Position numbers and translations under genes: made by a program. DNA of 46,273 nt from Escherichia phage PhiR29_1. Position 1 is the stretch's first letter; every line of letters begins with the position of its first letter. The stretch is taken from sequence record PV340556.1; one strand, given 5' to 3'. The notes below the pieces were generated by a model. The model ran no database searches, was not told the DNA's origin, and saw only the letters and a list, made by a program, of their open reading frames with translations. Positions 7,127 through 8,548 of the stretch are shown here, in pieces.

Positions 7127-8057
7127 ATTAACCGGCTATGTATGGGATGGTTGCGCAGCGTCAGGCATGAAATTATCCAGCGTGGCAATTATGGCCCGCC
7201 TGGCTGATTTCAGTAATGACGAAGGTGTGTGCTGGCCATCGATTGAAACCATTGCCCGCCAGATTGGCGCGGGGATGAGTACCGTCAGAACGGCTATCGC
7301 ACGGTTGGAAGCAGAAGGCTGGTTAACGCGTAAGGCGCGTCGCCAGGGTAACCGCAATGCGTCGAATGTTTATCAGCTTAACGTTGCGAAGCTTCAGGCA
7401 GCGGCATTTTCTCAACTGTCAGATTCTGACCCGTCAAAATCTGACGCATCAAAATCTGACCCGTCAAAATTTGATGCGTCGAAATCTGGCAAAAAAGCGG
7501 GTTTTCACCCGTCAGAATCTGGCGGGGATCCGTCAGTAAAATCAAAACATGATCCGTCAGATAAAAAACCTTCTCGTCCGGACTCTTCGCAACCGGACAC
7601 GCAGACGGCTGAACAGGATTTTTTAACTCGCCATCCTGATGCGGTTGTATTCAGCCCTAAAAAGCGCCAGTGGGGGACGCAGGATGATTTGACCTGCGCA
7701 CAGTGGCTCTGGAAAAAAATCATCGCCCTGTACGAGCATGCCGCCGAATGTGACGGCGAGGTGGTTCGTCCCAAAGAACCGAACTGGACAGCCTGGGCAA
7801 ACGAAATTCGCCTGATGTGTGTGCAGGATGGTCGTACTCATAAACAAATCTGCGAGATGTACAGCCGCGTCAGTCGCGATCCGTTCTGGTGCCGTAACGT
7901 GCTCAGCCCGTCGAAGCTGCGGGAAAAATGGGATGAGCTTTCCCTGCGCTTATCGCCGTCCGTCAGCACGTACACCGAAAAACGCGAAGACCCGTACTTC
8001 AAAGCCAGTTACGACAACGTGGACTACAGCCAGATCCCGGCAGGATTCAGGGGGTGA
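7116..8057 (+). CDS. Replication initiator (O-like; N-terminal winged-helix HTH domain) with internal iteron origin
   Basis: 313 aa; N-terminal HTH region (SVAIMARLADFSNDEGVCWPSIETIARQIGAGMSTVRTAIARLEAEGW); the central low-complexity S/D/K/P stretch is encoded by tandem DNA iterons, as in lambda O/ori. Confidence 0.75.
   Translation: MSTKLTGYVWDGCAASGMKLSSVAIMARLADFSNDEGVCWPSIETIARQIGAGMSTVRTAIARLEAEGWLTRKARRQGNRNASNVYQLNVAKLQAAAFSQLSDSDPSKSDASKSDPSKFDASKSGKKAGFHPSESGGDPSVKSKHDPSDKKPSRPDSSQPDTQTAEQDFLTRHPDAVVFSPKKRQWGTQDDLTCAQWLWKKIIALYEHAAECDGEVVRPKEPNWTAWANEIRLMCVQDGRTHKQICEMYSRVSRDPFWCRNVLSPSKLREKWDELSLRLSPSVSTYTEKREDPYFKASYDNVDYSQIPAGFRG
7418..7570. repeat. Iteron array (putative replication origin) inside the initiator gene
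   Basis: At least five about 15-bp units of the type CCGTCAAAATCTGAC / GCATCAAAATCTGAC / CCGTCAGAATCTGGC in tandem, followed by an A-rich tract. Confidence 0.65.
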
Positions 8058-8548
8058 TCATGAGTCTTTTGAATGACGTTCAGAAATTCATTGAAGCCCA
8101 TCCGGGGTGTACTTCCGGAGACATTGCGGATGCTTTTGCAGGTTACTCACGACAGCGCGTTCTGCAGTCAGCAAGCAAGTTACGTCAGAGTGGGCGTGTG
8201 GCTCACCGTTGTGAAGGGGATACACGCAGACATTTCCCGCGGCTGACTGAGATACCGCAGGAGCCGGAACCGCAACCAGTTCGTGAATCCAGACCTGTGC
8301 GCAATTTCTATGTCGGCACTAACGATCCCCGGGTGATTTTGTGCCTGACCCGCCAGGCGGAAGAACTGGAGTCCAGGGGCTTATACCGTCGTGCTGCAAC
8401 GGTGTGGATGGCGGCATTCCGTGAAAGCCACTCCCAGCAAGAGCGAAACAATTTTCTTGCGCGTCGTGAGCGGTGTTTACGGAAAAGCAGCAAGCGCGCT
8501 GCATCGGGTGAAGAGTGGTATCTGTCAGGGAATTACGTGGGGGCTTAA
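8054..8548 (+). CDS. PerC-like (Pch-like) transcriptional regulator domain protein (164 aa)
   Basis: Segment AEELESRGLYRRAATVWMAAF resembles the PerC motif as I recall it (ELENAGLWRRAADRW); family call from memory, not a search. Confidence 0.45.
   Translation: MIMSLLNDVQKFIEAHPGCTSGDIADAFAGYSRQRVLQSASKLRQSGRVAHRCEGDTRRHFPRLTEIPQEPEPQPVRESRPVRNFYVGTNDPRVILCLTRQAEELESRGLYRRAATVWMAAFRESHSQQERNNFLARRERCLRKSSKRAASGEEWYLSGNYVGA

Follow-up and report, generated by a model that had tools for sequence, protein, structure and literature searches.

The closest described systems are the PerC and Pch regulators. PerC of EPEC is carried on plasmid pMAR2, and PchA, PchB and PchC are carried by prophage morons of EHEC. 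Activation of ler has been shown for PerC and PchABC. Pch binds DNA at many loci and reduces H-NS occupancy of the LEE1 promoter (PMC4764244). In addition, H-NS was not co-precipitated with PchA (Fukui et al., unpublished observations). Thus, direct contact of the PerC core with H-NS is unestablished even for Pch.

Other proteins with a PerC core are encoded close to replication or early genes of mobile elements, and they include PchD, PchE and EcCIMP1_025 of a phage-inducible chromosomal island (PICI). PchD does not activate ler, and PchE activates it less than 2-fold (PMC5931665). Meanwhile, PchE is a repressor of curli that increases flagellar expression. EcCIMP1_025 silences LEE1 (PMC11773190), and the same paper, citing Porter 2005, reports that PerC-like genes of EDL933 and CFT073 islands had no effect on LEE1 fusions. 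Family members elsewhere thus activate LEE, leave it unaffected or repress it, so the PerC label is a poor guide to function. Membership of the PerC family, even at full length, does not predict activation of ler/LEE1.

The ANR (AraC negative regulator) family of anti-activators (Aar, Rnr, Cnr) is another related system. ANR proteins have three helices and bind AraC-family regulators and H-NS (PMC4983702, PMC5570504). They are smaller than 10 kDa and single-domain, and the genomes are described as having a virulence AraC-family partner (PMC4983702). It appears that no structure of a PerC-family protein has been solved so far.

In K-12, yfdN is named as the PerC homologue in the EHEC literature. 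In our literature search, we found no experiment on any YfdN-type protein; there were only overexpression screens with indirect phenotypes and one network prediction. Here, we analyzed a gene of this type in Escherichia phage PhiR29_1 (PV340556.1). The window, that is, the whole stretch of DNA analyzed, has 46,273 nucleotides. The gene is already known: it is the intact phage counterpart of K-12 yfdN, and its product is a two-domain relative of PerC and Pch.

Gene, Start Codon and Selection

A sequence-only reading had placed a gene of 164 aa at 8054-8548, in the replication module. The ORF is real and lies on the plus strand, and the location was confirmed, the gene being directly 3′ of the initiator gene (table 1). 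However, the length of 164 aa is counted from GTG 8054, which is probably an alternative start, and the true start is probably ATG 8060, giving 162 aa. We preferred ATG 8060 on the basis of the Shine-Dalgarno-like sequence, the upstream TGA, the family alignment and the annotation of phage PhiR29_2. The AGGGGG sequence falls within the last codons of the upstream initiator gene, whose TGA stop is at 8055-8057. Furthermore, the position of ATG 8060 is M in 84% of the aligned members of the YfdN family, mostly as "MS...", and the deposited annotation of PhiR29_2, which was identical to the window across the first 25 kb compared, starts the gene at ATG 8060.

Thirty-four distinct alleles of the gene showed 351 synonymous and 133 non-synonymous differences, with a median dN/dS of 0.10. 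This pattern supports a coding gene. The values were about 0.04 and 0.06 in the two domains and 0.47 in the linker. Purifying selection on both domains is strong.

Some minus-strand ORFs (45, 61 and 90 aa) also lie over the gene. They were considered spurious because the substitutions fit the plus frame and the databases hold no annotation there. In addition, no RNA families were found with Rfam between 5000 and 12500.

Table 1. Positions of the features at and around the YfdN-type gene in the window
Feature	Coordinates	Strand	Description and basis
Replication-initiator gene	7116..8057	+	313 aa; HTH_36 N-terminal domain, Pfam E 4.2e-11
Origin-like iterons	7404..7526	not assigned	about six overlapping copies with a 15-bp period; inverted repeats also present
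Initiator C-terminal tail, REDPYFKASYDNVDYSQIPAGFRG	7986..8054	+	core motif I/L-P-x-G-F-R-G
Shine-Dalgarno-like AGGGGG	8049..8054	+	five bases 5′ of ATG 8060; read directly
YfdN-type gene	8060..8548	+	162 aa plus stop; ORF, start evidence, YfdN/PHROG 1324 similarity, dN/dS
N-terminal winged-helix domain	8060..8245	+	aa 1-62; three helices, then beta-hairpin wing
Flexible linker, proline/glutamate-rich	8246..8323	+	aa 63-88; pLDDT <50 at residues 63-76
PerC/ANR-type three-helix core	8351..8506	+	aa 98-149; Pfam PerC positions 5-56 of 90
Family-specific C-terminal tail, SGEEWYLSGNYVGA	8507..8545	+	family alignments; low model confidence
Dam-type N6-adenine DNA methyltransferase	8548..9201	+	Pfam Dam E 1.1e-45; PhiR29_2 annotation

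Domain Organization of the YfdN Product

The YfdN product is a basic winged helix of the MarR/BlaI/MecI type, followed by a variable disordered linker and a PerC/ANR core. The winged helix was found both in an AlphaFold2 model built with an alignment and in PDB profile matches to MarR, BlaI and MecI, and the similarity of the N-terminal 62 residues to these profiles was weak but significant. Helix 3 plus the wing carries a mean net charge of +3.8. Judging from the fold and the charge, the winged helix is predicted to bind DNA. The N-terminal fold is the same as that of MarR/BlaI/MecI-type regulators; however, YfdN lacks their dimerisation or sensor domain and has the PerC/ANR core fused instead. 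The linker varies from 3 to 27 residues among the YfdN family. In BFVD, no full-length analogue was found, and the winged-helix matches were to the N-terminal domain only. Some winged helices contact proteins, and one of these, the RPA32 C-terminal domain, was among the weak PDB profile matches.

The sequence-only reading had also recognized a PerC/Pch-like segment, and an HMM search bore this out. PF06069 (PerC) matched residues 100-151 of the 164-aa form with 37.8 bits (E 2.3e-9), above the gathering cut-off of 22.6 bits. In BLASTP, the window protein and EPEC PerC (pMAR2) shared 37% identity over 46 residues (E 2e-6). Furthermore, hhalign of the YfdN-family C-terminal-domain profile against the PerC/PchA/PchD/PchE profile gave a probability of 98.6% over 55 columns (E 1e-15), and the PerC model was matched by 38 of 38 aligned YfdN-family members. 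We also aligned the core in nine sequences (the window protein, four YfdN-type relatives, PerC, PchA, PchD and PchE), and 11 positions were invariant in all nine: A100, L103, E104, G107, R110, R111, A112, W116, R129, R136 and C139, with the pattern A..LE..G..RRA...W ... R ... R..C.

However, the match to PF06069 is partial. The window protein covers only positions 5-56 of 90, whereas PerC, PchA, PchD and PchE cover 1-90 and score 124-153 bits. The alignment shows that the C-terminal half of PerC/Pch, roughly 35-40 residues, is absent from the window protein, and this half may be needed for Pch-like activity. In its place stands the tail of the YfdN family, with the consensus L-A/S-G-x-Y/F-x-G; the first G of this motif is kept in at least 90% of the members in both family alignments, and the second G in one of them. 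In addition, PerC (89 aa), PchA (104 aa), PchD (89 aa) and PchE (90 aa) are single-domain proteins, whereas the window protein has 162 aa and adds its own winged helix and linker. Similarly, PchD, PchE and the PICI proteins (about 90 aa) match the full PerC model and have no winged helix, unlike YfdN. On the other hand, the window protein and PerC/Pch are all basic and helical, with a core that has no classical HTH, and they all have horizontally acquired carriers.

The core is also shared, more distantly, by ANR proteins, which have three predicted helices and a similar signature and lack the PerC-specific C-terminal half. The ANR signature (A-x3-E ... A-x3-W-x2-A ... R-x3-C) fits the YfdN core for the most part. 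The ANR model (NCBIfam NF033650) gave 24.1 bits for the window protein (E 2.4e-5), which falls short of the curated cut-off (32 bits); YfdN-type proteins as a group scored 24-25 bits and PerC/Pch 14-18 bits. However, YfdN differs from ANR proteins in its length of 162 aa and in its two domains, one of them a winged helix, and no AraC-family partner was evident beside the gene among the ORFs of the window or in the PhiR29_2 annotation.

A PDB sequence search with the whole protein gave no matches, and the profile of the C-terminal domain gave chance-level matches alone. Meanwhile, Foldseek with a single-sequence model found nothing significant in the PDB, only generic three-helix folds of the MIT/TPR-like kind.

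Early Operon and Its Relatives

The YfdN-type gene is translationally coupled to the initiator gene upstream and to the Dam methylase gene downstream, in the rightward early operon. The Dam ATG overlaps the YfdN stop (TAATG), and overlap or near-overlap between the stop of the initiator gene and the start of the YfdN-like gene recurs in distant relatives. On the plus strand, no promoter-like site was found between about 6100 and 11900, where the terminator-like matches were weak only. The upstream gene is annotated as replication protein O in PhiR29_2, and the iterons inside it may be the origin. In lambda, the origin is located within gene O.

The order cI, cro, cII, initiator, YfdN-like gene, (methylase), LexA-like gene, RusA ... 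Q is shared by relatives with identity as low as 26-48%. However, two phages with the same initiator type, mEp390 and cdtI, have no intact YfdN-like gene. Thus, the gene is probably accessory. Furthermore, since the early operon in which it lies is under repressor control, its product is expected on induction. This arrangement differs from that of pchA, a separately transcribed late-region gene of prophage Sp4 that runs on the opposite strand. Meanwhile, pchE comes after primase and SSB genes in Sp7.

PADLOC gave no defence-system match. A weak PHROG match (E 0.012) suggested a lambda Ren-like exclusion protein, and this reading was dropped since the structure and profile searches did not support it. 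In lambda, ren comes after the replication genes.

K-12 yfdN and Species Distribution

K-12 YfdN (b2357), from the cryptic prophage CPS-53, is 96% identical to the window protein over all 164 residues. PHROG 1324 matched residues 2-163 with E 2.8e-78, and both this similarity and the gene neighbourhood place the protein in the YfdN family. However, the operon around K-12 yfdN is decayed: yfdO corresponds to the C-terminal 122 aa of the initiator of the window, tail included, and yfdM is a methylase remnant. In the window, the gene lies in an intact, functional lambdoid phage and has full-length neighbours.

The product name "PerC family transcriptional regulator" was found in 2674 of 5426 complete E. 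coli genomes in RefSeq. With this name already in thousands of genomes, the finding of a PerC-family protein adds nothing new in itself. Nevertheless, the label misleads on function, for the YfdN subfamily has only the PerC/ANR core, together with its own winged helix. The carriers include K-12, avian pathogenic strains, a kangaroo-rat commensal, and Shigella and Salmonella phages, as well as the Stx2c and some of the Stx2a converting phages of O157:H7. Judging by this strain spread, the gene does not appear to be linked with LEE-positive strains.

Weighing the Possible Functions

The sequence-only reading had proposed a possible link from the prophage state to virulence through LEE, as for Pch. 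In this scheme, YfdN would switch on ler/LEE1, or other virulence loci silenced by H-NS, so that prophage induction would carry over into virulence. The invariant PerC/Pch core, the early-operon expression that ties YfdN to induction, and the Stx2 converting phages among its carriers are consistent with it. Uhlich et al. also deleted yfdN, as a precaution, from an MG1655 ler::lacZ reporter strain (PMC5931665), although no published test of YfdN on ler was found in the literature consulted. However, every activator tested has the C-terminal half that is missing from YfdN. Even with a match to the whole PerC model, PchD does not activate ler and PchE does so less than 2-fold; the PICI protein represses LEE1, and others are reported to have no effect. 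Furthermore, half of the complete E. coli genomes, those of K-12, avian and commensal strains included, carry the gene, as do Shigella and Salmonella phages, and such breadth is a poor fit with a LEE-specific role. Thus, we consider activation of LEE by YfdN improbable: the link is weakly supported, and a specific role of YfdN at LEE is not supported. After induction, YfdN could still act on host genes.

The gene keeps a near-constant place beside the initiator and a DNA methylase, and this could reflect a different role, one within the phage itself. A replication accessory, functionally a stand-in for lambda P, would use its TPR-like domain to dock on the IPxGFRG tail of the initiator and help recruit host replication factors to the origin. 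An ORF ends at the YfdN-like start in 154 loci, and in nearly all of them it is an initiator closing with the tail motif, although the initiator bodies are mosaic and otherwise unrelated or merely 31% identical. The pairing persists where identity to YfdN falls to about 26-32%, and the initiator stop and YfdN start overlap or nearly so. In the phage collection, the records with the tail and those with YfdN are practically the same set (56 and 55, respectively), and no separate helicase-loader gene was recognized in the module by ORFs, Pfam or the PhiR29_2 annotation. However, this co-occurrence is largely the shared ancestry of adjoining DNA. The tail is present in mEp390, where the YfdN-like gene is absent, which weakens the idea that the tail is a YfdN-specific docking peptide; cdtI retains merely the first 28 YfdN codons. 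In loci L013/L014, a 41%-identical relative has no adjacent initiator; type I methylase and specificity genes precede it, and Q comes directly after it. Pfam, PDB and PADLOC searches gave nothing similar to lambda P, DnaC or helicases. A replication role is therefore, in our opinion, quite unlikely. YfdN might otherwise be a controller or partner of the adjacent methyltransferase, comparable to the small HTH controllers of restriction-modification, and set the timing, level or targeting of methylation. A DNA methyltransferase comes next at 119 of 152 loci (Dam-type 97, D12-class 19, MT-A70 3; the families are unrelated), counts that are descriptive only because the loci are heavily redundant. 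The overlap of the YfdN stop with the Dam start fits this explanation, other N-terminal extensions are fused to some D12-class enzymes, and even L013/L014, the one clearly different context, still adjoins methylase genes. On the other hand, 29 loci have no methylase and the LexA-like gene directly next, among them all three loci of a 48%-identical subgroup, and cdtI has dam without an intact YfdN gene. In addition, near-identical YfdN alleles precede different methylase families, as a mosaic "slot" would predict and a co-adapted pair would not. The chance that YfdN serves the methylase is slight.

Proposed Role of YfdN

YfdN is most likely an induction-time modulator of transcription or of nucleoid proteins. 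More specifically, we propose that, as the product of an accessory lambdoid early gene, it has a PerC/ANR core that, placed on DNA, would change transcription through nucleoid or regulator complexes in lytic growth. This proposal is tentative, and we put it a little below an even chance. YfdN would be silent in the repressed lysogen and produced after induction or infection. By analogy, the winged helix would position YfdN on DNA, and the TPR-like contact surface of the PerC/ANR core might then alter complexes of H-NS/StpA/Hha or of AraC-type activators. Pch acts in this manner at H-NS-bound promoters, and ANR proteins do so by binding H-NS and AraC-family regulators. As an outcome, AT-rich phage or host genes would be transcribed differently during lytic growth.

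YfdN-type proteins may represent a distinct class, in which a winged helix within the protein ties a PerC/ANR contact module to DNA. If this is true, lambdoid prophages would, on induction, reset the expression of host loci that are H-NS-silenced or AraC-controlled, for example those for adhesins, flagella and acid resistance, and also LEE in LEE-positive strains, and about half of the sequenced E. coli would carry this switch. As a second reading, the TPR-like core may dock on the IPxGFRG tail of the initiator and link origin firing to DNA methylation. We regard this wider picture, a DNA-tethered re-programmer of the host with initiator-tail docking as its second reading, as unlikely. In the lambdoid prophages of E. 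coli, Shigella and Salmonella, Stx2-converting phages included, few uncharacterised early genes are as widespread as those of the YfdN type.

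Family assignment and gene identity

The sequence-only reading had called a PerC/Pch-like regulator at this gene, and the HMM search for PerC/Pch families bore out the call: the product matched Pfam PF06069 significantly, scoring 37.8 bits where the gathering cut-off is 22.6 (E 2.3e-9). In addition, BLASTP aligned it with EPEC PerC (pMAR2) over 46 residues at 37% identity (E 2e-6), and the profile of the YfdN-family C-terminal domain matched a PerC/PchA/PchD/PchE profile with a probability of 98.6% (E 1e-15, 55 columns). Furthermore, 11 positions were invariant in 9/9 aligned sequences, including four YfdN-type relatives, PerC, PchA, PchD, and PchE.

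By sequence comparison, the product is a YfdN protein, 96% identical to K-12 YfdN (b2357) of the cryptic prophage CPS-53 and matching PHROG 1324 (E 2.8e-78). Matching DNA was found in 2674 of 5426 complete E. coli genomes, where RefSeq names the product "PerC family transcriptional regulator" and, in some records, the gene yfdN. The gene is also present in phages SfV, SfII, SfIV, mEp460, ST64B, Stx2c-converting phages, and others. Uhlich et al. already term yfdN "the K12 unique PerC homologue" (PMC5931665). The family assignment therefore brings nothing new, as the gene was known and annotated before; modest additions are the description of two domains, the finding that the PerC match is only partial, and statistics on synteny.

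The ORF at 8054-8548 (+) has 164 aa when counted from GTG 8054. However, an AGGGGG lies at 8049-8054, the TGA of the upstream gene at 8055-8057, and an ATG follows at 8060. Moreover, 84% of the family alignment members have M at this ATG, mostly as "MS...", and the deposited annotation of the identical phage PhiR29_2 uses the same start. Thus, the product most likely has 162 aa. Purifying selection acts on the gene (median dN/dS 0.10, 34 alleles), with values of 0.04 and 0.06 for the two domains and 0.47 for the linker. An Rfam search found no family overlapping yfdN.

Domain architecture

PerC (89 aa), PchA (104 aa), PchD (89 aa), and PchE (90 aa) are all single-domain proteins that cover the whole 90-position Pfam model at 124-153 bits. 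In contrast, YfdN covers only positions 5-56, lacks the C-terminal 35-40 residues, which are replaced by a short family-specific tail, and has about 90 additional N-terminal residues. When 1.84 billion representative proteins were searched exhaustively, only 102 clusters matched; among them, full-length relatives with both domains and identities as low as about 26% gave a coherent alignment. In the AlphaFold2 model built with this family alignment, the N-terminal domain is a winged helix (helix-helix-helix-beta-hairpin, pLDDT 82-89), the linker, 3 to 27 residues long in the family, is disordered, and the C-terminal domain has three helices (pLDDT 91-95). The fold predicted for the C-terminal domain is similar to 1.5 TPR repeats or to MIT domains, both of them protein-contact folds. 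Meanwhile, the YfdN core largely fits the published signature of the AraC negative regulators (ANR), and it scored 24.1 bits with ANR model NF033650, below the cut-off of 32, whereas PerC and the Pch proteins scored 14-18 bits. A PerC-ANR relationship has been noted earlier (PMC11773190).

Operon and genomic setting

Over its first 25 kb, beginning 26 bases in, the window matches PhiR29_2 (PV340557, a deposited complete lambdoid phage genome) at 100% identity, and the match probably extends over the whole window. The window exceeds that genome by about 90 bases in length, and it is therefore most likely a prophage with short flanks. An identical yfdN copy was found in a strain named ECOR29 (kangaroo-rat isolate).

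Features around yfdN in the window
Feature	Position	Strand	Remark
cI-like repressor	5205-5879	-	then cro, cII-like gene, small ORF
Replication initiator	7116-8057	+	with probable 15-bp iterons at 7404-7526
Conserved initiator tail	7986-8054	+	~20 residues, …YDNVDYSQIPAGFRG
YfdN	8060-8548	+	between initiator and Dam methylase
Dam methylase	8548-9201	+	directly after YfdN
LexA-DNA-binding-domain protein	9198-9524	+	108 aa; Pfam E 2.6e-19
RusA, KilA-N/ANT-type protein, DUF968 protein			in this order, after the LexA-type gene and before Q
Q	11739-12137		end of listed region

On the + strand from about 6100 to 11900, we found no promoter-like site, terminator-like matches were weak, and the start and stop of yfdN abut or overlap the neighboring genes. 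Thus, yfdN lies within the early rightward operon, and it should be off in the repressed lysogen and on after induction. The same gene arrangement is kept in distant relatives. The LexA-type protein has no S24 peptidase domain. Modules of this type keep it behind either YfdN or the methylase, and mEp390 has it too; competition with LexA for SOS boxes is a possible role. According to the PhiR29_2 annotation, Q is followed immediately by an OmpD-like porin gene (about 12327-13424, -), and bor stands after the lysis genes; the two genes resemble lysogenic-conversion morons.

Relation to the replication initiator and the methylase

We surveyed 158 loci from phage, prophage, and metagenome contigs; because redundancy among them is high, the counts serve only for description. 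An ORF ends at the YfdN-like start in 154 loci, and nearly all of these ORFs have I/L-P-x-G-F-R-G at their C-terminal end. The initiators are mosaic: the SfV body is only 31% identical and the N-terminal domain in locus L007 is unrelated, and all share the same tail of about 20 residues with this core motif (also in L006, L010, L011, L015, L016, and L018-L021). This shared tail suggested a partnership of initiator and YfdN like that of lambda O and P. However, in phage mEp390 the initiator with its tail (…FQNTDYSRIPAGFRGANS) is followed directly by a LexA-like gene, with neither YfdN nor methylase; phage cdtI retains only the first 28 YfdN codons ahead of dam; and a 41%-identical relative stands after type I methylase and specificity genes, directly before Q. 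Therefore, this replication module can probably do without YfdN, and the presence of the tail does not depend on YfdN, so the O/P-like partnership is a minor possibility. Since mEp390 has the tail and no YfdN-like gene, the tail may instead serve to dock a host replication factor. We found no description of it.

A functional tie to the adjacent methylase is likewise a minor alternative. In 119 of 152 loci, the gene that follows the YfdN-like one encodes a DNA methyltransferase (Dam-type 97, D12-class 19, MT-A70 3), but the association is not obligatory, a LexA-like gene following directly in 29 loci, and near-identical YfdN alleles precede different methylase families, as expected of a mosaic slot. 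This slot (equivalents in L007-L162) holds three unrelated methyltransferase families and is empty in some loci; some of its D12-class enzymes carry other N-terminal extensions.

The region with the 41%-identical gene (L013 394-4899; L014) represents the sole context found without an initiator directly upstream. Within the initiator gene, a 15-bp unit (TCAAAATCTGACSCR) recurs in about six overlapping copies, accompanied by inverted repeats, and this stretch encodes the DPSKSDASKSD low-complexity segment of the initiator. The lambda origin lies inside gene O, and by analogy these repeats are probably phage origin iterons.

Possible function and the LEE

YfdN combines a core homologous to PerC/Pch, a winged-helix N-terminus, early-operon placement, and strong selection on both domains, and its gene is probably accessory. 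The predicted winged helix would tether the protein to DNA, and the PerC/ANR-type core could then shift the composition of complexes formed by nucleoid proteins or regulators. This reading draws on analogies: Pch reduces the occupancy of LEE1 by H-NS, an effect that needs the H-NS/StpA/Hha system (PMC4764244), and ANR proteins bind AraC-family activators and H-NS (PMC4983702, PMC5570504).

The sign of regulation cannot be predicted. Within the family, effects range from activation through none to repression: PerC and PchABC activate ler; PchD has no effect on ler and PchE less than 2-fold (PMC5931665); PchE represses curli and induces flagella; and a PerC-family member encoded by a phage-inducible chromosomal island (PICI) silences LEE1 (PMC11773190). 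The link to LEE and virulence proposed from sequence alone is unsupported and somewhat disfavored, because half of the PerC domain is missing, LEE activation cannot be predicted from belonging to the family, and many strains and species not known for LEE carriage have the gene. The few indirect hints for YfdN itself come from a glycogen overexpression screen with YfdN among its results, a filamentation-inducing UTI89 fragment containing yfdN, and a predicted interaction network placing YfdN under "negative regulation of transcription". The finding would gain interest only if such a widespread early phage gene proved to re-programme the regulation of its host upon induction.

Other PerC-core genes are placed differently. 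In Sakai prophage Sp7 (L002, 11104-12045), pchE follows primase and SSB genes in a 15-kb element, probably the island treated as a PICI (EcCIEDL933) in PMC11773190, and in Sp4 (L003 33365-33679) pchA lies in the late region as a gene of its own on the opposite strand. Thus, with yfdN, PerC-core genes occupy at least three different mobile-element niches. Rare ORFs (P0026, P0020/P0021, P0040/P0041) fuse YfdN to the initiator HTH_36 domain, Dam, or RusA; they are probably deletion or frameshift products in decaying prophages.
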